Source of the DNA: a virus
Direction: 5' to 3' (one strand)
Length of the DNA stretch: 64,000 nt
Virus record (IMG/VR): IMGVR_UViG_3300042731_007874
Positions 13,098 to 35,072 of this stretch are shown here, one piece after another. The translations under genes were made by a program, and so were the position numbers. Each line of letters starts with the position of its first letter. Position 1 is the first letter of the stretch. The notes beneath the pieces were generated by a model, which did not search any database, had not been told where the DNA came from, and saw only the letters and a list, made by a program, of their open reading frames with translations.

Positions 13098-14978
13098 ATG
13101 ACTTTAGTATATTTGCCACGAAAATCTGTATACAAGACAGATGGTAATACTTTGGATGCCGCAACGGTTCAGGCTAAAAGAGTATTGATTATAGGGACCG
13201 CAGGCAAAGGGCTTGCCGATCAAATTGTAATTCCTTCCTCTACTTCTGTTGCCAAGTCAGAGTTTGGTTCAGATGGCTCTCTCTTGAGGGGGATGTGGGA
13301 AGCGAAAGAAGGTGGCGCGGCTCAAGTCGCGTTGTATCGGATTGGAGCAACCGCAGCTAGCTTAACAGGTGTGGGTGACACCACGGGAGCGGCTGGTTAT
13401 ACAATCGCAACTGTCGATAAAGATGCCGATGCTGGAGGAGATTATGCGCTTTATTATGACGACACTACAGACCGCCTTGTTATCCAGAGGAACTCAGATA
13501 GCCAGGTTGTTTGGGACAATAACCCAGGTGACGAAATTGACTTATTTGAGGTTAATGTTAGCGGTGAAAGAGCAGCCGCTGGAGGTGGAGACATTGGCTC
13601 TCCTTCTAGTTTCGTTAACCTAGAAGATGTTACTGCAACAGGGACTACTTTCACAGCAGGAACAGATGGACTAGATCTCAGTAAGATGGAAACGTATGAG
13701 GCTTTGTACGTCGCCTATAAGAACTTACTGGTCGGTGGATTTGATGTTGTTGTTCCGATGGATGTATTTCTTGATGACTATAATATAATTGCCCAAGGGC
13801 ATCGAAAAGGATCAGTACTCCCTGTACTTCCCAGTGCTAATACTTATCCTACTAAAGATGCGTATTCTTTGGGTTCTGATGTTGATTCTTTAGGTTCTGT
13901 TTATGTTGAAGAATACGAGGGAGACTATTACTTCTGGTGGAGAACAACTACTGGGGCTTTTACCGCTGCAGAACTGTATCCAACTGGTGTTGGTTCCGCA
14001 AGCGCAACCTTAAAGATTGATGGAACTGCTCTTACAGCAGACGATTTTCATGAAGTTAACTTTGCCTATCAATTGGCCAGATTCTTGTACGAGGTCTCTA
14101 CTGATGAAGTAGACGCTACTGGAGTTATTGGAGTTCTTCCTCCTGATTCAAATAGCCTGCGAGATAAGGCTTTGTGGCTCGGCAAAGAACCGACTTGGAC
14201 AATCAACAGCACTACTGGAGAATATACAATTACTTCTTCTGGGAATAATGGCTCTGGTTTGCTGGGGAATAAGTTTAAGGTAGGTCGCTCAGATCATCGA
14301 TCTGGTGCTTTTGGTGGCGGTTTTATTCTTACTGATAGTGAGTTTATGGACGGCACAGAAGAGACAGACGAGAATGACTATCCTATCGATCTTGGTAAAT
14401 ACATTTCCGTTGTCGCCGACAATCCGTTTATGCGAAACAACTGGTTGACATCTGGATATATTGGCTCTTTTGCTGCATCGTATGGTGGCTTCTATATTGA
14501 TCGGAAACCCTCTAGCTCTCCGACAAACAAGCCAATTCCTAAATCGATCTCAATCCTTTATGATTTCAAGCCAGGAGATTTAGATAAGCTATCCAAATAT
14601 GGCTACACCATGTTGCGGCGGAAGACTACAGGTACTGTTGTTGCTGATGCCCCTACGGCTGCTCTTCCAAATTCTGACTGGAGACGACTCTCAACAGTTC
14701 GAATTGTTAAGCTTGTTATTGACGGTGTTCGACTTGCAGTAGACAAATATTTAGGAGAAGGGACTTCTTCTTCGACTCGGGCGTCAATGTATACTGACGT
14801 AGAGAAGGTTCTTCAGAAAGCAAAGAAGAGCAAGGATCTTCAAGACTACAAAGAATTTGAGATTAAACAAACGCCTTCCATGGAGGTTTCTGGCGTAGCA
14901 CAGATCCATTTAAGGCTAGTCCCAGCTTTTGAACTGAGAGTAATTGAAGTTACAATCAGCGTTTCAAAGTCTGGTTAA
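13098..14978 (+). CDS. Tail sheath protein (contractile tail)
   Basis: RVLIIGTAGKG N-terminus; C-terminal DWRRLSTVRIVKLVIDGVR...IHLRLVPAFELRVIEVTISV is a sheath signature; SD AGGAGG. Confidence 0.9.
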   Translation: MTLVYLPRKSVYKTDGNTLDAATVQAKRVLIIGTAGKGLADQIVIPSSTSVAKSEFGSDGSLLRGMWEAKEGGAAQVALYRIGATAASLTGVGDTTGAAGYTIATVDKDADAGGDYALYYDDTTDRLVIQRNSDSQVVWDNNPGDEIDLFEVNVSGERAAAGGGDIGSPSSFVNLEDVTATGTTFTAGTDGLDLSKMETYEALYVAYKNLLVGGFDVVVPMDVFLDDYNIIAQGHRKGSVLPVLPSANTYPTKDAYSLGSDVDSLGSVYVEEYEGDYYFWWRTTTGAFTAAELYPTGVGSASATLKIDGTALTADDFHEVNFAYQLARFLYEVSTDEVDATGVIGVLPPDSNSLRDKALWLGKEPTWTINSTTGEYTITSSGNNGSGLLGNKFKVGRSDHRSGAFGGGFILTDSEFMDGTEETDENDYPIDLGKYISVVADNPFMRNNWLTSGYIGSFAASYGGFYIDRKPSSSPTNKPIPKSISILYDFKPGDLDKLSKYGYTMLRRKTTGTVVADAPTAALPNSDWRRLSTVRIVKLVIDGVRLAVDKYLGEGTSSSTRASMYTDVEKVLQKAKKSKDLQDYKEFEIKQTPSMEVSGVAQIHLRLVPAFELRVIEVTISVSKSG

Positions 14979-14993
14979 TAACGGAGGTTAGTA

Positions 14994-16615: not shown

Positions 16616-16638
16616 TTCCCTTCCCTGCGAGGCGGCTA

Positions 16639-17508: not shown

Positions 17509-18410
17509 TGACGATTAGAGATCCATATGGCGAGGTTTTAGGAACAAATAATGCTGGAACTACGGTATATGAATACGACAAATATACCGGGTCTCAAATA
17601 TCTGTTCTTATTGGGGATGTTGTTATTGACGACGCTGTTGGATTGAGCTTTGTCAAACAACAGTCAAAAACTCCTATTTACGGATTTGCGTCTCAATATT
17701 TTTCTTTTGTTGCTGACGGACATGTACTTGTCCAGGGTTCTCTATATATCTCTTTTAAAGAAGCCGGATATCTGTTTTATCCGATCCAAAGGTTCTTGAA
17801 TAGAACTGCCAATTTATATGCCGAAAATAGCGAAACCGATTGGCAAAATACAGCACAGACTGCTACTTCTCCTAGATATTCTGTTAATGACGACGGAGAG
17901 ATAGTAAATTACTACAAGCCTCAAGACTATACTTTTACCGAAGCTGCTGCTGCTGCAGAAACAAAGAGAGTAATGCAAGCAAATGTAGAGCAAATGTATA
18001 ACTGGCAAAGTAGGGATGGGACTCCGAGACAGCAGTCCAAATACAACCAAGCTTGGAGAGAGCTTGCTGCGTTACCTGATGATAAGTTTGAGGATTGGGC
18101 CGAAGTCTTTGAAGATACTATTTGGTTTGGTTCTGATAAATCAAATCCATTTGTTAGAGATAAGCTCTTTAGTAAAAACATTCCTCCAGGGACGATGATT
18201 AACGACGAAGACGTATTAAGCCATCGAGGAGCAGATCAATATCCTGCTGTAGATATTTTTATTACTTATGGAGATATGAGTAGAAAACCCGCCAACCATA
18301 CAGTAAAAAAACTTTTAGATGTCCATTTTATTGGACAAGCCCAAACATTAGAAGTTTCAGACCAACCAGTGTTAGAAAAGTACGATTTCCTTGCAAGAAC
18401 TCTAGTTTAG
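17508..18410 (+). CDS. Second tail tube-like paralog with internal insertion
   Basis: KTPIYGFASQ...VQGSLYI, PAVDIFITYG and VLEKYDFLART match the tube-family pattern. Confidence 0.7.
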   Translation: MTIRDPYGEVLGTNNAGTTVYEYDKYTGSQISVLIGDVVIDDAVGLSFVKQQSKTPIYGFASQYFSFVADGHVLVQGSLYISFKEAGYLFYPIQRFLNRTANLYAENSETDWQNTAQTATSPRYSVNDDGEIVNYYKPQDYTFTEAAAAAETKRVMQANVEQMYNWQSRDGTPRQQSKYNQAWRELAALPDDKFEDWAEVFEDTIWFGSDKSNPFVRDKLFSKNIPPGTMINDEDVLSHRGADQYPAVDIFITYGDMSRKPANHTVKKLLDVHFIGQAQTLEVSDQPVLEKYDFLARTLV

Positions 18411-19900: not shown

Positions 19901-22900
19901 TTGGTCTTACCAACAATCGCTTCAGGAGATCAGCCTCTTCCTTCAGATCAGGGAGATTTAACCCCTATTGCAAAGGCTGCGTTGGTTACTGGAAGCATAG
20001 GCGCTTCTGGTTTCATTCCTACTGCAAACGGCAGACTTTTTGATCGTTATGTAAATGCTATAAGAGCTGTTGAGACAGGATTTCCGGCTGCAATTTTAAG
20101 AACTTTCAGAACTTCTGAGTTCTTATCTCCTCTAGAATCTTGGTCTCAAATTGACGTTTCCACTTCTGCACTTCAACACGGGAAGTATGCAGAATTCTTA
20201 TCTTCTAGATTTGGTCATGCTACAGGTCTTTCTTTAAAACGTACAGGTTCTGTCTTTGGTCAAGTTACAAACGAAGCTGGAGAACTCTTAGGTTATGGTC
20301 TTCAAATCGAAGCTGGAAGCCAAAAGGGAACTGCCATCGCAGACTATTTTGCCCGGGTTTCCGGAGTCCAGCTTACAGAATTCCAATCTCTTAATGATGC
20401 ACTATTAAGATCTCAATATAGAATCGCTAATCCTGGAATTCCTTATGCTGAATGGTTAGAGTCTTTAGAACCTCAGTTAAGAAGACAAAGACTTATTCTT
20501 GGAAGCCGAATTAGAAGTAAAATAAATATACTTGGCAAAGATCTTCAGTTATCTAAGTCTTTTGCCGCAGGTCTTGCAAAAACAGAAACTGTCTTTAATT
20601 TACTTCGAGCAAAAGCAGCTTCCACTACAGGCCGTCTAAACACCCTTCTCTCGGCTCCTCTAGACATACCCTACCTGGGGGGTGTCTTATCTAAGATACC
20701 TGGACTGAGAAGCCTCTCTGTGCGTCCTGGTACAAGTACACAGATGATCAGTCGCTTCATTGGTAAGGGGTTGTTAATAGGTGCTGGATGGAAAGGGTTA
20801 GAGTATTTAGATTACTTAAGGCATGAAGGAAGTCCTCTAGCTCCAGTTTTCTCTACTGCCGCAGGTGCTGGAATTGGATCTCTAATTGCTCGTGCTCCAG
20901 GAGCAAAGTTTTCTAAGGCCGGATTGTTGATTGGTGGAGCAGTTGGACTTTTGGCAGGTATCGCTCCTAGATTTGACGAGGGTCTCTTTTATGGAGCCGC
21001 CACATTAGCTACAGATCTTACTTTAACAAAAGCAGAAATTTCAGAAAGTATTGGTTTAACAGAATCTCTTCAAGAACAAGAGAGAGTAACTCCTGGTCTG
21101 ACAGATATTTCTACTGGAATGGCATTTGCTGGTATCGGTGCCATGGCAGCTGGTTTTTTCTCTTATGGCGGGCTTTTGAAAGAATCAATTCTTAACAGAA
21201 AATCCGCATCCAGGTTTGCTGATGTTATTGAACTAACCAGAGCAGCTAGAAAAGAAAATTTATTAAAAGGAGTTTGGAAATCTAGATTTGGTCGAGCAAT
21301 TGAAGACATTCCTCTTCTAAAGAATATTACGAAAACAAAGTCCCCCATGCTATTAGGAGCTTTAGCCGGTTTTGCTGGTTGGCAACTCTTGTCTTCTGGT
21401 TTGTCTATTCTGTCTGGGAACCCTATGGCAGCTGTCCCCGGAGCTTCTGTATTAGGAACAACAGAAACACCAGAAGCACTACAAGCAATCTATTCTGGAG
21501 AAGAAGAAGTCCCTATAAGAAAAGGCAGATTTTGGGAATTCGGCCGGTGTTTGGCGGAACATACTGAAATCATTACGTTTTCTGGTATTTCCAAGAAAGC
21601 TAAAGATATTAAAATAGGAGATGTTCTTGTTGGGAGAGATTATAAAAAAGCAACGGTAAAAAATATATTTACAAGACATCACAAAGGAGAGATTTTAAAA
21701 TTTTCTTGTGCCTTTGATCGTGACTTAAAAGTAGAAGTTACTGGTAACCATAGGATACCAATATTAAGAAAATCATATTCGAATAAAGAGCATAGAGTTG
21801 AATACAAAACAAAAGAAGTTAAAGCATCTGAAATTAGACTTAATGATTATGTTGAAGTTCCTGTTAAAAAACTAGAATCAAATATTACAGATTCTGCGAC
21901 CAACCCGGCAGTTATAAACTATAAAGGGAAGATATATGCCGCAATTAGAACTATCGAAACAGAAGAATACGATGGTGTCGTTTATGACTTCGAAGTAGAC
22001 AACCCAGATCACCTATTCAGAGCGGGTCCTTTTCTTGTTCATAATAGTTCTTTCGAAGGGGATAAAATCCAATATTTCCGGCAACATGCGCTGCCTCGTC
22101 TTAGAGCAAGAGCGTATCAAAAAGGTCTCTACGGTTCTGAAGAGGAAAGATGGGGATATAGCCCTTGGCTTAACCCTGTAAAAGCTTTATTTGGTTCTGA
22201 TGAATGGAAGTATCACTATGAGCAGAAATACCAAAAAGAGAGACCTGCTCCAGTAACAGCTCCTGCTGGACAAGAGATTCCTTTTATAGGTCCATTGGTT
22301 GCAGAGACAATTGGTAAGCTAATAAAGCCTAGAAAATTAGTTCGTCCAGAAGAATGGATTACCGATACTGGAGTAAAGTATAAACCGTCAGATGAAGAGT
22401 TAGAACCCGCTTATGGAGTTGGAGGACTATCTGCTGGTCAACCTTTGTCTCCAGGAGAACCAACTCAATTATTTAACGAGCTGCTTTATAGAAGAAGAGA
22501 AGCTATTGGTTTGGTTGGTTTTACCGAAGGAGCCCTTGTCAAGTCATTATTGGGTCGTGAAGAGATCTTTCCTAACCAACAAACACTTGCACAAATGGGA
22601 AAAGAAACTGGTGGAGAAAATTGGCTTTTTCAACATTTGAATCTTGGAGGGGCCTATACTGCCAGCGAGCCCACAAGGCGATTTATTCCTAGAACTAGAA
22701 GTTATTTAGATACTTACAACCCTTTATCAAACCAAATGCCTTCTTGGATGCCGGGAGAAGATTACTTTATGGATTTTAAGACAGGAAATCCTTATCAATT
22801 ATCTCAACTTCCAGAAGCAGAGATTCGTCTTCCAGGTCCAGGGCTTGCAAGTTTATATCCTGCGTTAGAAGGAGTAGATCCTGAAAATTATCCGTTGGCA

Positions 22901-24565
22901 TATCGAGCAAAAGTATTAGGTGACGTTGCTTTTTGGAGCAATGAATACAGACAAACAATCTCCCAAGCAAAGAAGAACTTAAAATACATGTCAGAGGAAG
23001 AACAGCAAATTGTTCTAACAACAGAAGAACAAGTTAAGGCTAAAAAACAAAGAAGAAACTTTAAAGATTATGTTTTTGCCCAAGACCAATTACAACAAGA
23101 GACTGTTACCGTAACAAATGTTTTGTCTCCGCGAAGATTTAAAACAAAAGAATATGGAGATACTATATTAGAAGCAAAAGGTATTGGCGCGATTACCAAA
23201 CCACAAGAGGCTTTAGAGACGACCAGAAATGTTCTTGAAGGAAGTAGGATCTCTATTTATTCTCCAGGTCTAGAGTCTAGAAGATTTAGTCGTGTTTCTG
23301 AAGGGCCAAGAATGGAAGTTGTTCCAATGCTTGGAGATAGAGATTTAGGAACTGTTCTTACGGAAGCCGGGTATGCTCAACACAAAGAACTAGAAGATGA
23401 ATTTAGACAAATTAGATTTACTCCTTCAGAACGACTAGCTGGGTCGATCTCTGAAAAAGTACTCCATGGAGCAGAAACTCCTTTAGAATATCTGACTCCT
23501 ATCTCTCCTGCTTCTAAGTTAATTAGACAGCGATCTCCAATAGAAGAATACGAGAGAACAGAAGCAATTGGAACTGCAAATTCTTTCTGGGATCGCCCCG
23601 TAGATAACTTCTTAAAGCCTGCTTACAATATGACTAAATACGAGTTAGGTTCTAGCGAGATACCAGAAGAGATACAACAGCGGCGCGATATAACAGAATA
23701 TTTTGATAAGTTACAGTGGGTTAAAGCATCAAGACTAGAGGCCAAAGCAAAACTAACCGGAGACTTTCATTTAGCTTCAGAGTTTAAGAAACAAAAAGAA
23801 TCTACTGTTTTTGGTGTTAATGTTTTCGGCTCTCCCGTTAATGTAATGAGAGCTTTACCTCGTCGAGAAAGAGATTTCTTTAATGAATTTGTTCAAGCAA
23901 AAACAATAGAAGACAGAGAGAAAATTTTATCTTTAGTTCCAGAAGACGAAAGAAGGATTTATATTTCTCAATGGGCAAGACAAGAAGAAAATAGTTCAAG
24001 AGCTAAATTAGAAGCCAAAATTGCAACAGAAGACGACAACAAAACTCTAGGCTTAGTTGCTCAAATGAGAAAGTCAGAAGGGTTCTCTTTTGATGAGGCA
24101 ATGGCAAGACGATGGATGGAAGAGACTGGAGGTAAGATTCCTTTTGATGATTGGCTGAGAGAACAAAAAGCAGAAGAGTATTTTAGAACTCATTCATTAC
24201 CAGGTGCAGACTGGATCGGTTTTAACCCTGCGGTTAGCCTAGATGATATTCGTATGGTTGCTGTTGAAATGCTTGGGCAAGATTTCCATGAACATGATTT
24301 ATGGGATGACAGAAAAAGAATGTTAGCAAGAAAACCTTATATAAATCCCACTGTAGTATCAGAAATGCAAGAGCAGGCAGAATATCAAGATAGCTGGAAG
24401 GTTGCTAGAAACTCTAAAGCTTTAACTCAAATGTTTGGAGACTATAAGGCTTCTTTGTATCAATCAAAGATTGCTGCTAATATTGGCCCGCCGCGATATA
24501 ATATAGAATTAAGAGATGGAAGACAAGATCTTGTTGACAAAGCTTATGAGAGGATTACCGGTTAA
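19901..24565 (+). CDS. Tape-measure-like / ejection protein containing a mini-intein (precursor 1554 aa, spliced about 1388 aa)
   Basis: TTG start with SD AGGAGG; follows chaperones; several Gly/Ala-rich hydrophobic segments; intein at 21548-22045. Confidence 0.7.
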   Translation: MVLPTIASGDQPLPSDQGDLTPIAKAALVTGSIGASGFIPTANGRLFDRYVNAIRAVETGFPAAILRTFRTSEFLSPLESWSQIDVSTSALQHGKYAEFLSSRFGHATGLSLKRTGSVFGQVTNEAGELLGYGLQIEAGSQKGTAIADYFARVSGVQLTEFQSLNDALLRSQYRIANPGIPYAEWLESLEPQLRRQRLILGSRIRSKINILGKDLQLSKSFAAGLAKTETVFNLLRAKAASTTGRLNTLLSAPLDIPYLGGVLSKIPGLRSLSVRPGTSTQMISRFIGKGLLIGAGWKGLEYLDYLRHEGSPLAPVFSTAAGAGIGSLIARAPGAKFSKAGLLIGGAVGLLAGIAPRFDEGLFYGAATLATDLTLTKAEISESIGLTESLQEQERVTPGLTDISTGMAFAGIGAMAAGFFSYGGLLKESILNRKSASRFADVIELTRAARKENLLKGVWKSRFGRAIEDIPLLKNITKTKSPMLLGALAGFAGWQLLSSGLSILSGNPMAAVPGASVLGTTETPEALQAIYSGEEEVPIRKGRFWEFGRCLAEHTEIITFSGISKKAKDIKIGDVLVGRDYKKATVKNIFTRHHKGEILKFSCAFDRDLKVEVTGNHRIPILRKSYSNKEHRVEYKTKEVKASEIRLNDYVEVPVKKLESNITDSATNPAVINYKGKIYAAIRTIETEEYDGVVYDFEVDNPDHLFRAGPFLVHNSSFEGDKIQYFRQHALPRLRARAYQKGLYGSEEERWGYSPWLNPVKALFGSDEWKYHYEQKYQKERPAPVTAPAGQEIPFIGPLVAETIGKLIKPRKLVRPEEWITDTGVKYKPSDEELEPAYGVGGLSAGQPLSPGEPTQLFNELLYRRREAIGLVGFTEGALVKSLLGREEIFPNQQTLAQMGKETGGENWLFQHLNLGGAYTASEPTRRFIPRTRSYLDTYNPLSNQMPSWMPGEDYFMDFKTGNPYQLSQLPEAEIRLPGPGLASLYPALEGVDPENYPLAYRAKVLGDVAFWSNEYRQTISQAKKNLKYMSEEEQQIVLTTEEQVKAKKQRRNFKDYVFAQDQLQQETVTVTNVLSPRRFKTKEYGDTILEAKGIGAITKPQEALETTRNVLEGSRISIYSPGLESRRFSRVSEGPRMEVVPMLGDRDLGTVLTEAGYAQHKELEDEFRQIRFTPSERLAGSISEKVLHGAETPLEYLTPISPASKLIRQRSPIEEYERTEAIGTANSFWDRPVDNFLKPAYNMTKYELGSSEIPEEIQQRRDITEYFDKLQWVKASRLEAKAKLTGDFHLASEFKKQKESTVFGVNVFGSPVNVMRALPRRERDFFNEFVQAKTIEDREKILSLVPEDERRIYISQWARQEENSSRAKLEAKIATEDDNKTLGLVAQMRKSEGFSFDEAMARRWMEETGGKIPFDDWLREQKAEEYFRTHSLPGADWIGFNPAVSLDDIRMVAVEMLGQDFHEHDLWDDRKRMLARKPYINPTVVSEMQEQAEYQDSWKVARNSKALTQMFGDYKASLYQSKIAANIGPPRYNIELRDGRQDLVDKAYERITG
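21548..22045 (+). mobile_element. Mini-intein (166 aa, no endonuclease domain)
   Basis: Block A CLAEHTEI (Cys1), block B VTGNHRI (TxxH), block F VYDFEVDNPDHLF, block G LVHN followed by Ser+1; exteins RFWEFGR / SSFEGDKI. Confidence 0.92.
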
Positions 24566-27500
24566 TGCCAATTGACAATAGATATTATGAAGAAAGAAGT
24601 CCTTTATGGAGTTTGGCTTCTGCCAGTGCTCTTGCTGGCGGAATAGGATATTCTTATATTCAAGGGAAAGAAGACTTTGCCCGCGCTTTAAGAGCAGGGT
24701 CAAATGATATTTCTGAATCGATTATTTCAAGAGCAGCACAAGTTTCTGATTTTAATGTTGGTTCTGTAATGTCTTCTAATATAGACGAAGAATTCTTACG
24801 TTCTAATGTTCTCTCAATGGTTGGAGGGCCAGGAATTGTTAAGGGAAATCTTCATCAAGCAGCTTACGAATCTCTTCTTGCTACTGGAACAATAACAAAT
24901 GAAGAAGCTTTGTTGTCTTTAGCAGAAATTAACAAACAATCAACTCCGTTAGACGCTTACGAAGCAGCGATGTCTGTAATTAGAGGAAAAGGAGATCTTG
25001 ATGTTTTCGGAAACAAAATAGAAGAGATGACTACAGCTGGAGAAGCAAGATTAGCTTTACTACAAGACGCGGTAATGCCTTCGTCTCGTTATGGGGTTTT
25101 GGGTCCAAGGAATGTACCTTTCTCTGAACTATCAGCCACTGCACAGGAAAGGTTTGGTTCGTTAAAAACAAACATAACAGAAGCTGCTGGTAGTGGTTTT
25201 GATATCAACTGGAAGTTCAGAAACGTAGAAGACCTAATTGGAGGCAGATCTGTTACAACTCCAATGGCAATGTTAGAGATCAGTGGAGAAAGATTTGCTT
25301 TCCCTTTAGACCCATCTAGTAAGGTTGTTTATGGAGGTAAGAACCTATCCACAAGATATATGACAAGACAAGCATATACTACTGGTGGACAGCTTATGAA
25401 CTATGCGGATCTTGCCGAAGCAACAGTTGTTGATGCAATTCGCAAATCTCGTAACCAACAGGAATTAAAGAATAATTTATTTAACGCCCACAAAGGCTTA
25501 ATTGAGAACATATGGGAGTCAGATTCTGCCGCGAGGTCTGCTGCTATTTGGACTCCACCAGAACCAGTATTAACATCCGGAGGAAGAGCAAGAGCAAGAT
25601 TAACACTAAAAGAAGCGGTCGCTTATAATATTCCAGAAGAAGAAAGGATCGCTTTATTAGGAGAGAATCTTTATCCTTTTACCAGCCCAAATACAGCAGG
25701 GAAGGGAACTTTTGTTACGGCAAACATAAGAGAAGGTTTATTTGGTCCGCTTGGGAACTTAATAACTCCGGAGCAAAGACCTACTCAATTCATAAGATCT
25801 GAATGGGGAGTTACAGAAGCTGCCAAGCAAGCTGCTTCTCCATTTAGAGGAACTTTTGGATCGGCGTTTGATAGAGTTGATAGGAAGGTTCAAGGAGCTG
25901 ATTATAAAGCCCTCTTGTACGGAACGGCAGACCCAAGATCTGCTAAGGCATATTCAGCTCCTCAGCCATTGACTTTTTACGCTCGTCCTGGCGACAAAGT
26001 AGGCTATCAAAGAGAAGCGTTAAACAATCTTTTATCAGCAGAAGAAGGGGCCATATCGTCTTCGGCTAGAGGGATGTTCGAATACGAAAAATTACTACAA
26101 AAGAAAATCTCATTAACAAGCAACCTTCCTTTAAATAAACAATTAGCCTCTAAACTAGAAGGAGTTGCTCGTGGAACATTTGTTCCGATTGAAGGGATTG
26201 GAGCAGGAGCATTTTTAGGAACAGAGCTAGAGACTGGTAGAGAGTTAGCCTTATTGGCTGATGACGCAGTTGCTCAATCTGTTATAGGTGCAGAGATAAC
26301 AGAAGAAGGACAGGCTACTTTATTTCTTAAAGAGCGCCGCAGAATGCAGAAAAATGAACTTTGGAAATTCTTCTCAGAAGAGAATAAATATATGCTTGGG
26401 CTAGCAGACGATCTTAAGTTTAGAGAAATAGCTGAAGCTGCTGGTGCAGAATTAACTATAGGAGGTCAACGACTAGAGGCTATTCAATCCGGAAAATTAG
26501 TTGGAAGAAACCAATTCTCTCTATTAACTCAACAGATAGAAGCGGCTTCTGTATTTGCTGGTAATATTATAGATTCTGACGTAAACAATACTGTTAGGAG
26601 GAGAATAAGAAACCAAGAAATTCAAGCTTTTCTAGCAGACCCGGCTAAAGCCTTAAATGTTTCTGGGTTAATGGCCAATAGAGAGATTGATAGTGCCTAT
26701 GCAGTTCAAAAAAACCTTATTGGCCTCACAAAGGGATGGGGGTTCTCTGAACAAGAGATGCAACGTACATTTGGCTTAATGTCTTCTGGCCACTTAGAAC
26801 AAATGGTTTCAGAAGGAATCCTGTCTCCTGCAGAGCAAAAGTCAATTTTGAGTTCTAGTGGAGTTATTGGACTAGGCAAAGGTAGATTAGGGGATCTTGC
26901 TTCTGGTAACTGGGGACGAGGATCTTTCGAGCAATCCGGGTTTAGGCTTTTGACAGCCAAAGGAGAAGAAGGAGCTGCTTTTGCCACAGAATTAAGTAAA
27001 CGTATTTTAGGGAAAGGAGAACTTGGCGCAATCGCCAAAATGGAAGAATCTGTTTTAGGGCAAGAAAGCTTTTTGAAAAAATTCTCTAAAATGACTTCGA
27101 CTCCTATCTCTAAGATAGAAGATCTTGTTGGAGAAACAGGTAGATACGTTTCTTTAGGAAGAAAGTTTAAGGCTTTTGGCGGATCGAGTAGAATATATGT
27201 TCCTGGTACTTCTGAAGCATCTGGGTTATTAAAGCCAATTATTTCTAGAGGAGAAGAGATTTCTGCACCATTAATTTCTGAGCTAAGGTCTTTTCAATCT
27301 CTCTTAAAAGCCGGACGACCAGAGGAAGAACTTGAATCTGCAGCTGAAAGACTAAGAAACCTAGTTGTTCAGCTTTCTGAAACTCAGTCTGCCGCTAGAG
27401 GAAAAGTAGTTGGTTCTGAGATATTGACTGGCGTTAGAAGAACTTTTAAAGAACAAAGCGATACCTTTAGGATCTCTCAACAATCTGCAGATAGAATGTT

Positions 27501-28968
27501 TAACGATCTGATTAAGCGTTCTGCTGTTGGAGAAAAAGAATTTCTAGAACAACAAAGACAAGCTCTTATGTCTGGAGAAACCCTCATGGGAGGAATGTGG
27601 CGTCATCCAACAACCGGACCCGAGTCTTTTCAGTTTGTTAAATACAAAGTAGATAAACAACTAGCAGATGGAATGGTCGCTGCTCCAACCAAATTTGGGA
27701 CCTTAGCTTTCAAGGGAGGAAGATCATACAAAGCTGATATTTCAGAAATGGTTGGTTTTGCTGGAGACTTTGATAGAGACCAATTTGTTTTGTCTGCTAT
27801 TGCGGAAAAAAATACCGCTAATAAAGTTAGACGAAATATAGATACAAAGATGAGACAGCAATATACTAATTATGTATTTAATCATTACGGGATGAAAGAC
27901 ATAATTGACCAAAAAGTTAGTAAAAGCGCAATCTTAGATACGTTATCCAGAGAGGCTCTTCAATCTGGATACAAAAAACTAACAACAGCCAAAACAACAA
28001 CTGGGCAAGTTAACCTTGCTCTTCAAAAACTAAAGATTGGGTTACAATACACTGCACCAGAAGAATACAGACCATTAGCGGATCTGTTCTTCCATCTAGA
28101 ACAAACTGCTATCGGTGGTAAACATGGTGTCTTAACCTCTGATTTGTATCAAGCTATTGCTGCATCCACTAAGGGAGGAGAACAAGGTCTTCGAACAATG
28201 ACAGATGTTTTGACTACTTTGTTTGGTGGAGATAAAATTAATCTTAAAGGACAAGTTACTGATTCTTTTGGAAATGTTACTTCTCATGCTTTTAACATGG
28301 ATCTAAAACAAGCTGCGCAAGTTGCGATTTCTTCTTATGACGCGGTTAGTCAAGATGTTGACATTGCGGTAAGAGCAGCCTCTATGGCAAAAGGAAAATC
28401 ATCTGACTTTGTTACTTTAAACAAACTAACAGAACAGTTTTATGCTCGACGACAAGGATCTATTGACATTGCCCAACAATACATGCAGGCAAATGCCGAA
28501 AACCTAGAGACTCTTACGGGTAAAACTTCTCGACTAATTCGCAAAGCAGAAGCTAAATCAAAGTCATTACTAAGTGCAATTAGAGCACACAAGAAACCAA
28601 TCTTGATTGGAGCAGCTGCGGCAGTAGGGATTGCAGCTTTGTCCCCAAGTGTTTCTGGTGTTTTAAGGCCGGTTACTCCTGTTCCCAATAAGAGAAGAGA
28701 GATTACAGCAGAACACATTACCCCTGAAGGCCCGCCAATGAACCCGCCGGAACCTGGACCTAACATTGCACCTAGAGTTTACGATTTTGGTGGCGGTGAC
28801 GAATCAATCCGTGCTAATATTAGAACTAGAATCAATGACTTACAACAATCAGAAAACTTCATGGATAAAGTCAAAGGTTTTGGAGGACAATCCTCTCTTC
28901 GAATCAAAGATGATCGTTCTGTATTAGATCCTCATTTGTTGGCAAACAAGATACATGAAAGATTGTAA
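24565..28968 (+). CDS. Putative virion-associated single-chain two-barrel RNA polymerase (1467 aa)
   Basis: Ordered motifs: EEGAISSS (493), LFLKERRRMQKNELWKFFSEENK (K601, K608), GQRLEAIQSGKLVGR, WRHP (R1013), AGDFDRD (D1068/D1070/D1072), bridge-helix-like TTAKTTTGQV, trigger-loop-like QTAIGGKH (Q1180, H1187). Confidence 0.75.
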   Translation: MPIDNRYYEERSPLWSLASASALAGGIGYSYIQGKEDFARALRAGSNDISESIISRAAQVSDFNVGSVMSSNIDEEFLRSNVLSMVGGPGIVKGNLHQAAYESLLATGTITNEEALLSLAEINKQSTPLDAYEAAMSVIRGKGDLDVFGNKIEEMTTAGEARLALLQDAVMPSSRYGVLGPRNVPFSELSATAQERFGSLKTNITEAAGSGFDINWKFRNVEDLIGGRSVTTPMAMLEISGERFAFPLDPSSKVVYGGKNLSTRYMTRQAYTTGGQLMNYADLAEATVVDAIRKSRNQQELKNNLFNAHKGLIENIWESDSAARSAAIWTPPEPVLTSGGRARARLTLKEAVAYNIPEEERIALLGENLYPFTSPNTAGKGTFVTANIREGLFGPLGNLITPEQRPTQFIRSEWGVTEAAKQAASPFRGTFGSAFDRVDRKVQGADYKALLYGTADPRSAKAYSAPQPLTFYARPGDKVGYQREALNNLLSAEEGAISSSARGMFEYEKLLQKKISLTSNLPLNKQLASKLEGVARGTFVPIEGIGAGAFLGTELETGRELALLADDAVAQSVIGAEITEEGQATLFLKERRRMQKNELWKFFSEENKYMLGLADDLKFREIAEAAGAELTIGGQRLEAIQSGKLVGRNQFSLLTQQIEAASVFAGNIIDSDVNNTVRRRIRNQEIQAFLADPAKALNVSGLMANREIDSAYAVQKNLIGLTKGWGFSEQEMQRTFGLMSSGHLEQMVSEGILSPAEQKSILSSSGVIGLGKGRLGDLASGNWGRGSFEQSGFRLLTAKGEEGAAFATELSKRILGKGELGAIAKMEESVLGQESFLKKFSKMTSTPISKIEDLVGETGRYVSLGRKFKAFGGSSRIYVPGTSEASGLLKPIISRGEEISAPLISELRSFQSLLKAGRPEEELESAAERLRNLVVQLSETQSAARGKVVGSEILTGVRRTFKEQSDTFRISQQSADRMFNDLIKRSAVGEKEFLEQQRQALMSGETLMGGMWRHPTTGPESFQFVKYKVDKQLADGMVAAPTKFGTLAFKGGRSYKADISEMVGFAGDFDRDQFVLSAIAEKNTANKVRRNIDTKMRQQYTNYVFNHYGMKDIIDQKVSKSAILDTLSREALQSGYKKLTTAKTTTGQVNLALQKLKIGLQYTAPEEYRPLADLFFHLEQTAIGGKHGVLTSDLYQAIAASTKGGEQGLRTMTDVLTTLFGGDKINLKGQVTDSFGNVTSHAFNMDLKQAAQVAISSYDAVSQDVDIAVRAASMAKGKSSDFVTLNKLTEQFYARRQGSIDIAQQYMQANAENLETLTGKTSRLIRKAEAKSKSLLSAIRAHKKPILIGAAAAVGIAALSPSVSGVLRPVTPVPNKRREITAEHITPEGPPMNPPEPGPNIAPRVYDFGGGDESIRANIRTRINDLQQSENFMDKVKGFGGQSSLRIKDDRSVLDPHLLANKIHERL

Positions 28969-31900
28969 TGCCTAAAGAGTTAATATTTCCACAAAGCATA
29001 GAAGAAGAAGACTGGGAGAAAGATGTCTCTTTAGAGATTGGGACTTCTTCTCCAAGTGGCTTAGAACTTGAATATGCCAAAGGAGCCGAAAGAGAAGACT
29101 TATTTGTTTCTTTTGTGGGAACTGATATTTTCCCTGATGATGTTATAGTAATTAATGATGTATATTTAGATAATATTCCTACAAGCGCAATAAAAATCCA
29201 ATCTAGCCCAGATGTCTTTGTAGCAGAAACACTTAGAACTAAATCTCCTATAGTTACCTCTAAAGGTAAACAAGATTTTATTTTAGATTTAAGTTTGGTT
29301 TTTAAGCCAGGAAAAGCACAACAACAAAAGCTTCATCGATTAATTGCAGAGCTGTCTAAAACTCCTTTTACATTTATCTTTAATAATAAAATTAAGAAAG
29401 CCTTGGCTGTAAAAGATTTTGAAACAACTTTATTTGTATTAGAATTCGGCAACTTAAGATCTGTCTCTGACGCTGTCGGAGTCGTTGCTTTAGACTTAAC
29501 TTTTCATTTATGTAACTATAAACCTTTCAGTAACCACTGTTATTATAATGCTCGTTTAGGAGGACTAGAGAAAGAAAAAGAAACGAAGGCCGAAGAGGTT
29601 GGAACCCCTATTGAGCTAGGAGGGCTACAAGGTTTTGAAGCTGACGAATATACAATAACGAAACATACAGAGAAGGTAAGAGCTAATATTCAAAAAGGGC
29701 TAGAGGCAACTAAATCTGCTTCTCAAGGTAATATTCCAGTTGCTTTCCCGTCTGAATCAGATGCTTGGATGTATTACGCCAATAGACTAGAGTCTCAAGT
29801 TCAACAAATTACAGATTCTCCTTCTGATTATATTGGGTTAGCTGTCCAAGAATATAAATATATTTCTCCTCCAGACGAAGCAAAAATAGGTAAGTCTTTA
29901 AAAGACTTTTCTTTTGATAATCCTCTTCATCCAATTAGGGCTCCATATGTTGCAAATAATCCAGATTCAACTAGAACAATTAACCAACAGTCGGTTGATG
30001 AGCTAACAAGCTTAGAGTCTGATTCGTCTATTAAAACAAAATTTATTAACACTAAAACAGGACAGAGTATTAGTGTTAAGTTACTAACTGATCAAAACGA
30101 ACCGTCTGCAGAAGCTGCTTATCAGCTAAGTAAATTATGGAGAGTAGGAAAATATAGCGATTGTGCCTATGTTCAATTAGGGTTAGTAGGGAAGTTAGCT
30201 TTATTATCAAATAGGTTCCCAGGAAGAACAATTCGAATTATTTCCGCGTCTAGAAAACAAAAGAACTTATCAAAACCGCCTAGCAAACATGCTATAGGTC
30301 AAGCAATGGACCTAACCATTGATGGTGTTCCAAATGAAGAAATTTTTGCTTTTGCTAAACAACAACATAAAACAGGAATTGGCTTTTACCCAAACTCAAC
30401 TTTTGTTCATATCGATCATAGGGAAAAATCAACCTATTGGATAGACTTATCTGGACCAGGAGAAAAGGCCAACTATGTTTCTTCTAATGATAGGGCTAAT
30501 TGGTTAAGAGATTACTATCAAACTCATAATGACATAGAAGAAGACACTGATGAAATAAATCATAAACCAGATTATTTATCTGAACTAAACAACTCCAAAG
30601 GAGGAGAAGTATCTAAAACTCAAGAAAAGATAGACAGAAAAAAAGAACAAACTTCTCCAAACGAATCTAGAAAAAAATCTTTAGAAGCTAGAGAGCTTTG
30701 GATTAAAGCACAAGAAACTGAAGGTTGGTTTTATTACAGCAAAGACAAAAAGATAAAGAATCTTTTCTTTCGCAAAATCGCAGCAAATGTGTCTGGAGAC
30801 TTTTCTGCTCAACAACAAGGACTAGTTCTTCCCAATATAGTTTGTTCTGCTTTGTCACTTTCTTTTGGACATAGAATTTCTCCTCTTCGTCTTGTTGGCC
30901 AACCGTACTATTCTTATCAGTTTTTAGGAGCAGGCAATAGAACAGGTCAAATTGTGTTTACTTATGCGGGAAAGACTGGTCAGAAATCTGCTGATATTAT
31001 TAAAGAAATAATTTATAAAGCCCAAGAGAACTCTCGTAAATTTGGCGCTTTGGTTAAAGAAGCAGGAGCGGTTAATGTTGCTTCTTTGTCTTATCTGACC
31101 GGCGATCAGAATATTTTATTAGCCTTGCTTGGTGTTGAGAATATCGTTGTGACAGGAATAGAAGATGCTTCCTCTCCGGATTCCGCTGATAAAAATCAAT
31201 TGCTTATTGAGTTTATTGTACAGGATTTTGCAGAAGAAACAATAGAAAAAAGATTAACGACCACACTTTCTTCTAAACAACGAATTATTAAAAGCATTAT
31301 GGGAATGTTGTCTTCGCGCAAAGCAGCTGGACTAACAAATGACATTACGTCAATTTACCCAAATCGATCTATTGCAAAAGTGAATTTAGGAACTGGAAGA
31401 GCTTATGAAGTCGTAGAGGGGACTCCTTCATGGGTAGCTAATATTGCAGCTAAAGCTGCGGAACTTTGCCAAGACATAAATAACAAGATGCCTCCAGTTA
31501 AATGGAGAGCAAATAAGCTTGCTGCTAAAACTTGGAAAGATAATTATTCGGAATGGGGAGCTGGAAATCTATTTAATGGCCGAGTCAAGAATATAGATTC
31601 TGAAGAGAAGAACGGAGCTGGACCAACTTTTGGAACTTTACCCGGTAAAGAAATATACGAAAGTGTAAATGGTTCTAGTAATGCTCCTTCTCCAGAGTCT
31701 ATGTATAGTGGAGTATTTCAATATGATGGCGGCTCAAAGACTAATGAAATCCACGAACGAGTCTTCTTGGAATGGCTCAGCAGGATGGATGTTTTAGTTA
31801 AAGAAGTCAACCAGTATGCGGCAGACGAAGAGAATTTCGAAAAATATTTTGGCAACATAGGGCTAGAACTACTAGACGAGGTGAGTGATTCGTTAGGCGA

Positions 31901-34900
31901 TTGTTGTTCTGATTTAGATTTACCTAATGTTCCTGGTGCACGAGTTCCTCTCCCCCCAGAGTTTTACTTTTATGATGATTCAGATGAAGATCCATTAATA
32001 TCTTCGTTAACAGATCGAAAAAATTTAGAAAGTCTTCTGCAACGTCATATATTTAATGAACTTCAATCTGTTCGTCGTTTTATGAAAGACTGCTTTCTAG
32101 GAGGAGCTTATCTGTCAAAGAACCTCCCTAGAATATTAGAGAACAGAGCTGTTACTGTTAATAACTTTACTCCTGAATTTAACTGGATGGGACACTTTGC
32201 CAACATGTTTGGCGAAGGCGCTTTTGCATGGGATCCAATCTTTTACAGAGAAGATCCTTCTATTGATAGCAATGCAGGAGTTTTATCTTGGAAAAACTTA
32301 ATTCAATCAACTTTAGGAGGAGGATCTCCTGAAGAGCAACGACTTAATTTTATAGACAACCTCGTTTCCTTAAGTGGTTATCTAAAAACAGATCGTCATT
32401 GGGAAACTCCTTATACTGATAACGATAAACAATCTATAGTTGAATCATTATATGGAGAAGCCTGGGATCGTATTACCTTTGGGCCAAACCCCCGCTATGC
32501 AAGTGTAGATACTATCTGGGACGGAAAACCAATTGATTCAAACACCTTAGCCGGTAGAGAAGCAGCCTTAGAAGACAAAGCAAAACGAGAAGCCAAGGCC
32601 AAAGACAAACAAATTGAATTACCCGGCCATAAGACAGTTACAAACAAAGGTGCAGTTACTGTTGGATCTCTTGAAGCCGAAGAACAATCCTTTGGAGACC
32701 AGTTTTTAAGTAATGTAGAAAATGCATTTACCGTAGAGAATCTAGTTGATAAAGCTTTGGGATCACTAGGGATTTTAGGTACTGTTATTTCTACTGTTGG
32801 AGATACTCTTTCTCAATTTGAAAAAGCTGGATATAGAAGTGTAGCTAATGCTCAGTACTTAGCTGCCTTAAAACACCCAATCGCAGATTCAGTAACAGAA
32901 GAAAACACACCAGAGACTTTGGCTAAAATGACTTCTGGAATTGCTTTAGGTACTAAGCGAAACGACTTAAGCTTTCGAAGAGCTTTTCCAACTCTTAAGG
33001 TTCTTTTTATAGAAGACGACTCTGTGGACACGAAAATCTCAGGAGGAAAAGTTGTTAGGGCTTTTGATGATTTCTATTCGTATTCTGCGATTCAAGAAAT
33101 AAGAGTCACTAGAAGCCGAAAAATGGCTTCAGATTTAGCCGTCCTTCGAATGACAAATATCGGAGGAAAACTTTTACGACATCGATTTGGAGAAGAAGAA
33201 TACAAAAAACCAACAGCAGCTTCTTCTGAAAGACAAGGTATTTTTGCAGATACTGAAAGAGAGAATCCGTTTGAGAGAATGATTCTACAAGATGGAGTAA
33301 AAGTTCAAATTCGTCTTGGATATTCAGGATCGGCAAAACAGCTAGAGACTGTTTTTCTTGGGCAAATAGTAGAAACTCAACTAGCAGAAGATGGGAAAAT
33401 CCTAGAGATTATGATTCAGGGATATGGGGCAGAACTAGAATCTATTGAGCTAGGTCCTCTAGAAGATGGTCCAGTCTTTTATTCTTCTCAGCAAGTTTTG
33501 TCTGGAGCTATAATTCAAGACTCAATCGCAAACTTTGGGAGACAAGACAGATCTAATCGATTTAATCCTGCAGAAATTAGAAATGCTTGGACTGGAGGGC
33601 AGGGCGTTGGCTCTATTGGTTCTTTTACTGGGCTGATTTCTAGCTGGGCCGACAACAAAATGGACAAGTTGTTGGCTAAATATACTTTTCTGAATTATCC
33701 GCAAGACGATAATATCTTTGCTCCTCCTCCTCAGTTGTATACTTCAGAATGGGATCGGTTTTGGAATAATGCTTGTATCTATCGGCCGCTGAAACAAACA
33801 CCTTGGCAAATCTTTAAAGAGCACGAACTGAGACATCCTGGTTATGTTTCTTTGGCTGTTCCTTATGGACATGAGCCTAGAATGACTATGTTCTTTGGGG
33901 CGAAAGGACAACATTACTGGGCGAGGCCGCCTAGTGCTTTAGAAGTTTATCTGTCAGAAAACGCGACTAATGAGATTATTAAATTAAGGAAGATGGGTCC
34001 TGAGAATGATCTTACCTTAAATGTGCAGCAGCGATTAAGGTCTTTAAGCTCGCAATCTCCAAATATCACAAACGCAATTATAGAAGATCTATTAAGTAAT
34101 GGTTCTCCGAACGCAGTAAATCTAGAGCTTGGCAAAATGTTTGGTCGGTATGTTCCATTTAGAAACTATCATTATTTTGACAGCGAGCACCATATCTTAA
34201 AAAACAACATAAGAACCTCAGTTGATGGTACGTATAATGAAGTAGAGTTATTGTTCTTCGAAGACGAGGATAAACTTCAAGATGCAGATGCTGAAGACCT
34301 GTCTCAGTCTATTGCCGAAATGCGAAGAGAAGAAGACGGCATGCTGTCTGTTAAGCTTGATGAGAATATCCCTGAATCTGCATTAAGATCCTATAGAGAT
34401 GAGTTTCCTTCTTGTGTAACTGTTGAAATGGCCAGAAGATACGCCCAAGGTATTTTTGCTCGATATCTTAGAGATACCTATAAGGGAGAATTAATTGTTA
34501 TTGGGAATGAAAAAATTAAGCCTTATGATGTTTGTTATTTAAAAGACAGTACTTGTGATATGAGCGGGCCTATTGAAGTTGAAGCAGTAACTCACATTTT
34601 TAATCGAGACAGTGGGTTTGTTTCTGTTATTACCCCAGACCTATGTGTTGAAGTAAACGACATGTTCTCTGTTAGTACTCTAGACTTGGCCGCAAGCGCC
34701 ATGACTTATGTATGGGCTCTGCCCCGATTGGCCATTAACGAGTCAGTTGGTTATCTTTCAGGAGCCTCTACGGGGGTTGAGTTCTTGTCAGCAACAGCAG
34801 GAATTAAATTAGCTTCATGGACTCAAGATGGAGATCCTGTTGTAATTACTCCTCTTACTTTGGGAGGCAAGCCTTTCTGCAGTACCACGTTTGGGCCAAA

Positions 34901-35072
34901 GAATACAACTTTGTTCCTTAACTTGTTTGGTCAATGGAAGCAATACAAAGAAGATCTGGCTAGTGCTTGGGATGATTTTGATTTTGGAGAAGCTTTCTTA
35001 GATACAAGATTAAGTATTAGTTCTAAACTACTGACCTTATTAGGGACAGGTGCTCAAGGTGGGGTTATATAA
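28968..35072 (+). CDS. Baseplate hub / tail-tip megaprotein (2034 aa) with an internal M15 (YcbK-like) peptidoglycan peptidase
   Basis: Tube/Dit-like and hub-like segments (AIQEIRVTRSRKMASDLAVLRMTN; GELIVIGNEKIKPYD...VEAVTHIF); Zn-peptidase motif H441-x6-D448...H481 (SKHAIGQAMD; GIGFYPNSTFVHID). Confidence 0.75.
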   Translation: MPKELIFPQSIEEEDWEKDVSLEIGTSSPSGLELEYAKGAEREDLFVSFVGTDIFPDDVIVINDVYLDNIPTSAIKIQSSPDVFVAETLRTKSPIVTSKGKQDFILDLSLVFKPGKAQQQKLHRLIAELSKTPFTFIFNNKIKKALAVKDFETTLFVLEFGNLRSVSDAVGVVALDLTFHLCNYKPFSNHCYYNARLGGLEKEKETKAEEVGTPIELGGLQGFEADEYTITKHTEKVRANIQKGLEATKSASQGNIPVAFPSESDAWMYYANRLESQVQQITDSPSDYIGLAVQEYKYISPPDEAKIGKSLKDFSFDNPLHPIRAPYVANNPDSTRTINQQSVDELTSLESDSSIKTKFINTKTGQSISVKLLTDQNEPSAEAAYQLSKLWRVGKYSDCAYVQLGLVGKLALLSNRFPGRTIRIISASRKQKNLSKPPSKHAIGQAMDLTIDGVPNEEIFAFAKQQHKTGIGFYPNSTFVHIDHREKSTYWIDLSGPGEKANYVSSNDRANWLRDYYQTHNDIEEDTDEINHKPDYLSELNNSKGGEVSKTQEKIDRKKEQTSPNESRKKSLEARELWIKAQETEGWFYYSKDKKIKNLFFRKIAANVSGDFSAQQQGLVLPNIVCSALSLSFGHRISPLRLVGQPYYSYQFLGAGNRTGQIVFTYAGKTGQKSADIIKEIIYKAQENSRKFGALVKEAGAVNVASLSYLTGDQNILLALLGVENIVVTGIEDASSPDSADKNQLLIEFIVQDFAEETIEKRLTTTLSSKQRIIKSIMGMLSSRKAAGLTNDITSIYPNRSIAKVNLGTGRAYEVVEGTPSWVANIAAKAAELCQDINNKMPPVKWRANKLAAKTWKDNYSEWGAGNLFNGRVKNIDSEEKNGAGPTFGTLPGKEIYESVNGSSNAPSPESMYSGVFQYDGGSKTNEIHERVFLEWLSRMDVLVKEVNQYAADEENFEKYFGNIGLELLDEVSDSLGDCCSDLDLPNVPGARVPLPPEFYFYDDSDEDPLISSLTDRKNLESLLQRHIFNELQSVRRFMKDCFLGGAYLSKNLPRILENRAVTVNNFTPEFNWMGHFANMFGEGAFAWDPIFYREDPSIDSNAGVLSWKNLIQSTLGGGSPEEQRLNFIDNLVSLSGYLKTDRHWETPYTDNDKQSIVESLYGEAWDRITFGPNPRYASVDTIWDGKPIDSNTLAGREAALEDKAKREAKAKDKQIELPGHKTVTNKGAVTVGSLEAEEQSFGDQFLSNVENAFTVENLVDKALGSLGILGTVISTVGDTLSQFEKAGYRSVANAQYLAALKHPIADSVTEENTPETLAKMTSGIALGTKRNDLSFRRAFPTLKVLFIEDDSVDTKISGGKVVRAFDDFYSYSAIQEIRVTRSRKMASDLAVLRMTNIGGKLLRHRFGEEEYKKPTAASSERQGIFADTERENPFERMILQDGVKVQIRLGYSGSAKQLETVFLGQIVETQLAEDGKILEIMIQGYGAELESIELGPLEDGPVFYSSQQVLSGAIIQDSIANFGRQDRSNRFNPAEIRNAWTGGQGVGSIGSFTGLISSWADNKMDKLLAKYTFLNYPQDDNIFAPPPQLYTSEWDRFWNNACIYRPLKQTPWQIFKEHELRHPGYVSLAVPYGHEPRMTMFFGAKGQHYWARPPSALEVYLSENATNEIIKLRKMGPENDLTLNVQQRLRSLSSQSPNITNAIIEDLLSNGSPNAVNLELGKMFGRYVPFRNYHYFDSEHHILKNNIRTSVDGTYNEVELLFFEDEDKLQDADAEDLSQSIAEMRREEDGMLSVKLDENIPESALRSYRDEFPSCVTVEMARRYAQGIFARYLRDTYKGELIVIGNEKIKPYDVCYLKDSTCDMSGPIEVEAVTHIFNRDSGFVSVITPDLCVEVNDMFSVSTLDLAASAMTYVWALPRLAINESVGYLSGASTGVEFLSATAGIKLASWTQDGDPVVITPLTLGGKPFCSTTFGPKNTTLFLNLFGQWKQYKEDLASAWDDFDFGEAFLDTRLSISSKLLTLLGTGAQGGVI

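Follow-up and report, generated by a model that had tools for sequence, protein, structure and literature searches.

A stretch of 64,000 nucleotides from the IMG/VR virus record IMGVR_UViG_3300042731_007874 (hereafter the window) carries in its tail module an open reading frame (ORF) at positions 24565-28968 on the plus strand, whose 1467-residue product, P0001, is on balance best explained as a virion-packaged, injected single-chain RNA polymerase (RNAP) of a contractile-tailed phage. A reading of the letters alone, without database searches (the sequence-only reading), had proposed such an enzyme; the ORF is as that reading gave it, and every motif string that it quoted lies at the residues and nucleotides (nt) it named. 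We consider it highly probable that P0001 has a two-barrel polymerase fold with a live active site, and probable that it carries out DNA-templated RNA synthesis. That it is virion-borne and injected is suggested by the position of its gene, and this is the part of the explanation towards which we lean less firmly.

The fold of P0001 was predicted with AlphaFold2. A first run on residues 141-1340 with 10 sequences gave a poor model (predicted local distance difference test score, pLDDT, of 51.6); structure searches with it returned nothing significant, and their weak rows were already enriched in RNAP chains. A run on residues 321-1300 with 50 diverse homologues and no templates reached a mean pLDDT of 91.4 and a predicted template modelling score (pTM) of 0.90. 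Foldseek matched this model to the PDB 103 times at E ≤ 1e-3, and the 50 of these 103 matches that were listed are all beta (second-largest) or beta' (largest) RNAP subunits, from bacteria, archaea, eukaryotes, plastids and poxviruses. A VIA search of 48,161 chains, which is independent of Foldseek, split the P0001 model cleanly. Isolated double-psi beta-barrels (DPBBs), represented by designed DPBBs and the N domains of CDC48/VAT, fit residues 950-1080, where R1013 and an Asp triad are found. The ESM Atlas clusters nearest to the model were fused PF00562+PF00623 proteins of phages and Chloroflexota (TM 0.47-0.52, with 554-616 residues aligned).

These comparisons bear out the beta-then-beta' order of active-site elements that the sequence-only reading had claimed: a beta-like followed by a beta'-like two-barrel RNAP architecture is present in the predicted structure, where the two DPBB modules appear to form one catalytic core. 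The signature of two-barrel polymerases is an Asp triad from one barrel combined with two basic residues from the other (PMC7824862; PMC10770324). In P0001, the DxDxD triad belongs to the beta'-like barrel, with DFDRD in a loop of this second barrel between model strands 734-738 and 753-758. Two conserved basic residues, K601 and K608, come from the beta-like barrel, where they lie in adjacent strands (model residues 279-283 and 288-294) and are candidate equivalents of the beta lysines. The long helices of residues 1095-1187 and a near-invariant LEQxxIxGKH block are inside the stretch that can be aligned with Rpb1 as far as about residue 1425. On the model, the proposed assignments of a bridge helix, a trigger loop and an AEEG block in P0001 are plausible.

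Conservation was counted in an alignment of 110 full-length cluster representatives that are 16-50% identical to P0001. G558, P880, R1013, D1068, D1070 and D1072 are invariant (110/110), K601 is found in 109 of the 110 sequences, K608 in 104 with Arg in another four, and F603 in 98. WRHPTTGPESFQ is present in P0001 with R1013 at nt 27601, and close to this residue P1015 (108/110) and S1021 (103/110) are also well kept. The other active-site codons are at nt 26365 (K601) and nt 26386 (K608), with AGDFDRD at nt 27760-27780 and QTAIGGKH at nt 28102-28125. DxDxD occurs in all 110 members, 40-60 residues after an R-x-P...S motif (R-H-P-x-x-G-P-x-S-x-Q), and its catalytic-position copy is found at about residue 930-1260 of each member; a few members carry an unrelated second DxDxD elsewhere. 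The LEQ block is likewise conserved, with E1179 in 107, I1183 in 104, K1186 in 108 and H1187 in 93 of the 110 sequences. Two other stretches quoted as polymerase-like are present in P0001 but only moderately conserved, namely AEEGAISSS at residues 492-500 (E493 62/110, E494 70/110) and GQRLEAIQSGK (E638 60/110 plus 23 Asp; N649 78/110). The triad, R1013 and K601/K608, whose conservation the sequence-only reading had proposed as a check, are kept almost without exception. A lone DxDxD in 1467 residues could be due to chance, whereas its presence in 110 of 110 members is not. Since the triad and R1013 are invariant and K601/K608 near-invariant at overall identities of 16-20%, we suggest that there is selection on catalysis.

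The family is large and isolated in sequence space. A word-indexed search found 16 full-length homologues of P0001 at 38-49% identity, and the contigs on which P0001 is recorded reach 184,481 bp, one of them originating from run SRR12668987. An exhaustive profile search with residues 430-1330 yielded 130 cluster representatives. Of these, 45 have E < 1e-30, and almost all are 1430-1640 residues in length. P0001 matched no Pfam family at E ≤ 0.1, and hence stays below the gathering thresholds of RNA_pol_Rpb2_6 and RNA_pol_Rpb1_2, and it matched no PHROG. Neither phmmer nor a profile hmmsearch detected a relative among the PDB sequences at E ≤ 10, and tblastn of P0001 and the distant members P0098 and P0076 against 50,697 phage records gave no match. 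With hhalign, the 110-sequence family profile aligned to nothing in E. coli beta or in gp145 of Bacillus phage 0305phi8-36, and to gp66 of the crAss-like phage phi14:2 with a probability of 0.1%, a value from a single target sequence for which remote homology is still possible. The profile had one weak match to E. coli beta' (E 1.1e-3, probability 20%) that is in register over 180 columns, placing RGKxxGS on FRQNLLGKR, RHP on NRAP and GDFDRD on NADFDGD. The predicted fold, the invariant residues and the hhalign register thus agree on the identity of P0001 as a polymerase. We found no paper that describes the P0001 family, which together with the lack of Pfam, PHROG, PDB-sequence and cultured-phage BLAST matches agrees with the earlier claim that it is undescribed. 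That it constitutes a new sequence family and architecture among phage RNAPs is supported by these results.

Behind the polymerase core, P0001 continues with a hydrophobic segment, a proline-rich linker and a conserved tail. The hydrophobic segment is the only strongly hydrophobic one in P0001 and recurs at the same place in some distant members, with G1349 conserved in 101 of the 110 sequences. The coordinates of these and other features are collected in Table 1.

Table 1. Features of P0001 and of the surrounding tail module, in window coordinates.
Feature	Position (nt)	Strand	Basis or remark
P0001, single-chain two-barrel RNA-polymerase-like protein, 1467 aa	24565..28968	+	ORF, 16 close homologues, ~130 cluster representatives
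N-terminal region, aa 1-320	24565..25524	+	Gly/Ala-rich segment ~aa 12-32; beta-rich domain ~aa 181-320
Beta-subunit-like module, aa 321-784	25525..26916	+	
First (beta-like) barrel, aa 506-642, boundaries approximate	26080..26490	+	Strand pattern, model residues 186-322
K601-x6-K608 (WKFFSEENK), candidate basic pair of beta-like barrel	26365..26388	+	Conservation, adjacent model strands
Beta'-subunit-like module, aa 832-1300	27058..28464	+	
Second (beta'-like) double-psi beta-barrel, aa 946-1078	27400..27798	+	
R1013-HPTTGPESFQF motif	27601..27636	+	hhalign: on beta' R425, aligned with NRAPTLH
D1068-F-D1070-R-D1072, predicted Mg-binding catalytic triad	27766..27780	+	110/110 for each Asp; aligned with NADFDGD of E. 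coli beta'
LEQTAIGGKHG block, candidate trigger-loop-like element	28096..28128	+	Conservation; end of model helix 845-867; function inferred
Hydrophobic segment aa 1346-1364, candidate membrane anchor	28600..28656	+	Kyte-Doolittle 1.87 over 19 residues
Conserved C-terminal module aa 1414-1467 (IKDDRSVL...HERL)	28804..28968	+	D1449 103/110, R1451 92/110
TAATG stop/start overlap P0002/P0001	24563..24567	+	
TAATG stop/start overlap P0001/P0003	28966..28970	+	
P0002, upstream giant, 1554 aa including mini-intein	19901..24565	+	ME3_35 orthologue
P0003, downstream giant, 2034 aa, baseplate hub or tail lysin, peptidase M15	28968..35072	+	PF05951, PF08291; phrog_20474
Tail sheath gene	13098..14978	+	phrog_16991, E 5e-59; tblastn to sheaths of ME3, Moorella phage MTATph1 and 0305phi8-36

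P0001 is the middle of three giant ORFs (P0002, P0001 and P0003) that are coupled by TAATG overlaps. Upstream of P0002 are a portal-like ORF, a capsid gene, the sheath gene, tube-like paralogues and two small ORFs, the last two occupying the slot of the annotated tail chaperonins in 0305phi8-36 and in Acinetobacter phage ME3. Downstream of P0003 follow baseplate wedge genes and fibre-like giants. The sheath gene establishes a contractile tail, and the gene content as a whole marks the window as the late structural operon of such a phage. The same synteny of three giants was found at nine IMG/VR loci, and a family member with 19% identity to P0001 (P0076) is in the same slot on a 245-kb contig (L043). 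P0003 matches the giant 'endolysin' PHROGs phrog_20474 and phrog_8809, contains a peptidase M15 (DUF882/M15_3) cell-wall hydrolase domain at residues 408-484 (nt 30189-30419), and has the position of the hubs ME3_37 and 0305phi8-36 gp147. The sequence-only reading had described P0001 as encoded by a stand-alone gene between tape measure and hub; the gene does lie between P0002 and the hub, with P0002 as a candidate tape measure.

Among cultured phages, ME3, Moorella phage MTATph1 and 0305phi8-36 are the closest by their sheaths. ME3 and 0305phi8-36 share the gene order sheath, tubes, chaperones, giant, giant and hub. In ME3, the clear orthologue of P0002 is ME3_35 (hhalign probability 100%, E 1.8e-48, 802 columns), and the record of ME3_35 notes homology with gp145 of 0305phi8-36 (YP_001429636.1), a protein found in the virions of that phage by mass spectrometry according to its GenBank record. 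Between ME3_35 and the hub ME3_37 lies ME3_36 (AND75197.1; KU935715.1 28845-33656, locus L018), a 1603-residue 'hypothetical protein' that contains KFFSVGSK at residue 632, aligned with the K601-x6-K608 stretch of P0001, REPAQGTMSSQ at residue 1174 and DHDQD at residue 1217, and thus shares the three motifs of the family. The first barrel of the family profile aligned to ME3_36 with an hhalign probability of 52% (E 1.5e-4). A hidden Markov model of the family matched nothing in the ME3 and 0305phi8-36 records at E ≤ 10, and tblastn likewise misses ME3_36. By structure, the ME3 protein A0A172Q021 in BFVD, which is divided into two parts of ~800 residues and which we take to be ME3_36, matches the P0001 model at E 2.6e-7 and 8.4e-6. 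ME3_36 differs from P0001 in its C-terminus and has no polymerase annotation. A survey of jumbo phages, which assigned ME3 to group 2.2, credited two-barrel RNAPs to its group 1 and to two phages of group 3 but to no others (PMC7824862).

Other proteins of cultured phages also resembled the model. A second ME3 protein in BFVD, A0A172Q0S6 (798 residues), was matched by Foldseek at E 6.8e-6 over 714 columns. The only ME3 ORF of this size is at KU935715.1 224453-226876 on the minus strand, a candidate for A0A172Q0S6; this ORF has no DxDxD, no Pfam match and no relative in the three related records G001-G003. A0A172Q0S6 is possibly a non-virion partner of the polymerase. Giant proteins of the Microcystis phages MaMV-DC (A0A075BUT7_2, E 2.5e-4) and Ma-LMM01 (A0A7J4_2, a 'PLD phosphodiesterase domain-containing protein', E 2.9e-4) match the model too, so the fold may hide in other cultured phages.

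The slot of P0001 is taken in 0305phi8-36 by gp146, which is annotated as 'hypothetical tape measure protein', is virion-borne and has no DxDxD. The C-terminal module of P0001 and the last 50 residues of gp146 are weakly similar (hhalign E 6.6e-4, probability 27%). The C-termini of P0002, P0001, gp145 and gp146 all have a hydrophobic-alternating strand followed by D-x-R, at ~15-30 residues from the end (window positions 24470-24562 and 28870-28965 for P0002 and P0001). This shared pattern could be a common tail-incorporation signal. A packaging signal shared by P0002 and P0001, seen by eye as Y-N-I-E-L-R-D-G-R versus L-R-I-K-D-D-R-S, was rejected, as hhalign left the two profiles unaligned and BLASTP was insignificant. 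Profile comparison supports C-terminal likeness for P0001 and gp146 alone, and weakly.

We searched G001-G003 for a second polymerase. The family profile found one copy of the P0001 family per relative record, including the complete 197.7-kb relative G001. PF00562, PF00623 and PF04542 (beta, beta' and sigma-70 region 2) had no match in G001-G003; PF00940 (T7-like) had none either, a result that is uninformative as the PF00940 control was also blank. Among all ORFs of at least 300 residues in G001, a regular expression for the RxP...DxDxD signature hit the P0001 homologue only.

Virion RNAPs of the two-barrel type are known in several other arrangements. In Thermus phage P23-45, and also in P74-26, G20c and TSP4, such an enzyme is fused to the tape measure (PMC10770324): P23-45 gp96 is the N-terminal part of a 5002-residue tape measure in a phage with a non-contractile tail. 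P0001, in contrast, is a separate ORF of 1467 residues in a contractile-tail operon, with only ~170 residues after its polymerase core, and is not a gp96-type fusion to a long tape measure. Judged by its model, P0001 is structurally less like gp96 than like the cellular beta and beta' subunits. P23-45 also has a second polymerase, gp64, whereas no gp64-like one was found in the P0001 relatives searched. Like P0001, phi14:2 gp66 is a large single-chain two-barrel RNAP with a DFDxD motif that is encoded next to giant virion proteins (bioRxiv 10.1101/2020.03.07.982082; NC_021806 g066). Gp66 is packaged in the virion (bioRxiv 10.1101/2020.03.07.982082), as gene position suggests for P0001. Gp66 differs in its length of 2180 residues, in belonging to a podovirus-like crAss phage, and in having no profile-sequence similarity to P0001. 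Foldseek matched the P0001 model weakly (E ~2e-3 to 5e-3) to giant crAss-phage proteins annotated as DNA helicase.

The RNAPs of phiKZ and AR9 are split into four or five polypeptides (PMC7598289; PDB 7OGP, 7S00), unlike P0001, which is one chain, has no Pfam match and is encoded in the tail module. Mini-RNAPs from phages and Chloroflexota in the ESM Atlas, with beta and beta' fused (PF00562+PF00623, ~900-1000 residues), have the same single-chain domain order and are the best whole-model matches. They differ from P0001 in being recognisable by Pfam and shorter, and in lacking the N-terminal 320 residues, the C-terminal hydrophobic segment and the tail. The two halves of the P0001 model resemble cellular and jumbo-phage beta/beta' more than single chains of the QDE-1/gp96 type. 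Further single-chain two-barrel polymerases are plant RDR2 and the YonO-like clade; among the structure matches listed there was no YonO.

Together, these observations are consistent with the following scenario. P0001 is most probably a cellular-type ('two-barrel') RNAP with beta-then-beta' DPBBs in one chain, its active site formed by D1068/D1070/D1072 and R1013 from the beta'-like barrel and by K601/K608 from the beta-like barrel. Produced late, alongside the tail proteins, it would become part of the particle, most likely inside or at the lumen of the tail together with P0002. Sheath contraction would deliver it into the cell, where it may be held at the inner membrane by its hydrophobic segment. 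There, with no need for the host enzyme, it would transcribe the first genes of the incoming phage DNA, as proposed for P23-45 gp96. The slot in the tail module, the TAATG coupling and the orthology of P0002 to the line of a virion protein detected by mass spectrometry were counted in favour of a virion enzyme. Several points weigh against this scenario. A folded core of ~110 kDa cannot pass a tail tube, so that unfolding or storage in the head would be needed. The links of the family to known polymerases are weak by sequence, with a probability of 20% for beta' and no link to beta or phi14:2 gp66. Lastly, P0001 has DFDRD rather than the canonical DFDGD, although other members often have DFDGD or DYDGD.

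Other explanations account for part of the evidence. An active two-barrel RNAP that is not packaged, and that works inside the infected cell on, for example, late genes or a special template, would have the same fold and active site, and P23-45 does possess both a virion and a non-virion enzyme (PMC10770324). Yet P0001 is encoded only in the late tail operon and coupled to virion giants, and would come too late to start a transcription programme. The location behind the chaperone-slot ORFs and ahead of the hub persists down to 19% identity, the adjacent P0002 has a virion protein as its orthologue, and it is hard to see what a soluble enzyme would do with the C-terminal hydrophobic segment and the conserved tail, which leaves an unpackaged RNAP rather unlikely. 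We consider it a little less likely again that P0001 is a delivered two-barrel nucleotidyl transferase with another chemistry or template, such as a QDE-1-like RNA-dependent RNA polymerase, a primase-like enzyme that provides primers for replicating the incoming DNA, or a DNA polymerase like PolD. As P0001 has no Pfam family, it has no match to the RNA-dependent RNA polymerase family of QDE-1 and plant RDR2.

A protein with a structural role in the tail or in ejection, perhaps another tape measure, whose polymerase fold is exapted and catalytically dead could explain why the slot holds the 'hypothetical tape measure protein' gp146 in the 0305phi8-36 record, and the weak C-terminal similarity to gp146. 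Such a protein would hardly keep the triad and R1013 invariant and K601/K608 near-invariant at 16-20% identity, and residues 321-1300 are predicted to fold into a compact alpha/beta enzyme of globular shape (pTM 0.90) instead of an extended, helical ruler; we therefore hold this to be very unlikely. P0001 does not have the build of a tape measure protein: its position fits loosely, with P0002 between it and the chaperone-slot ORFs, and the predicted compact enzyme does not fit. Finally, the polymerase-like motifs might be a chance resemblance in an unrelated protein, given the absence of Pfam, PHROG and PDB sequence matches and the poor first model from a shallow alignment. This is contradicted by the high-confidence model with its RNAP matches, by the invariance of the motifs and by the in-register hhalign match to beta', and we give it almost no credence.

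Several features of the neighbouring genes were observed alongside. P0002 contains a mini-intein at about residues 544-715 that splits a conserved RKGRFWEFGR / SSFEGD motif and that matches the Pfam families Intein_splicing, Hint and Hom_end_hint, all below their curated cut-offs. Homologues of P0002 without an intein have ~1380-1400 residues (L002, L004, L005, L006 and L007). Larger homologues have 1770-1790 residues (L001, L003 and L009) or 2618 residues from stop to stop (L008); these sizes suggest that their insertions, at this site or elsewhere, are larger or more numerous. Four ORFs of 258, 147, 289 and 300 residues follow the sheath gene at 15255-18410. The 258-residue ORF matches phrog_22655, and the other three match phrog_9206, which is labelled 'major head protein'; their position suggests that they are tube paralogues. 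On L043, the gene after the polymerase-like giant (14620-17394) encodes a 924-residue protein with a staphylococcal nuclease domain (PF00565), followed by a 1515-residue giant and baseplate J. The PF00565 protein suggests that this slot of the tail also carries other enzymes.

With an RNA polymerase of its own on board, a phage can begin its programme without relying on the host enzyme. The cases known from the literature consulted are N4 (T7-like), phiKZ and AR9 (multisubunit), the crAss-like phages (gp66) and P23-45 (tape-measure fusion). Injection of an RNAP by a myovirus has precedents in phiKZ and AR9, whose enzymes are multisubunit; the novelty here is an enzyme that consists of a single chain and is encoded in the tail module. 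The P0001 family adds a sequence-orphan family of ~130 clusters in the tape-measure/hub slot of contractile tails. For annotation, its members may be recognised by K-x6-K in the first half, then R-x-P...S, then DxDxD 40-60 residues on. The family includes the cultured and therapy-relevant Acinetobacter phage ME3, which is not listed among the phages with two-barrel polymerases (PMC7824862), and ME3_36 offers a ready experimental system for it.

More speculatively, a widespread lineage of 140-250-kb contractile-tailed phages may have no polymerase other than that of the P0001 family. It would be loaded in the lumen beside P0002, be threaded unfolded through the tube on contraction, and refold at the inner membrane on its C-terminal anchor, where it would start early transcription and help to pull the genome in. 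We offer this as a tentative picture that could well prove wrong. If true, the enzyme would be a tail-delivered, membrane-tethered transcription motor, and its fused beta-beta' form would stand nearer in structure to cellular polymerases than do the single-chain enzymes known from phages. Among the questions that the family opens to testing are how a contractile tail can deliver a large enzyme, which promoters this enzyme uses, and how fused beta-beta' and cellular polymerases are related.

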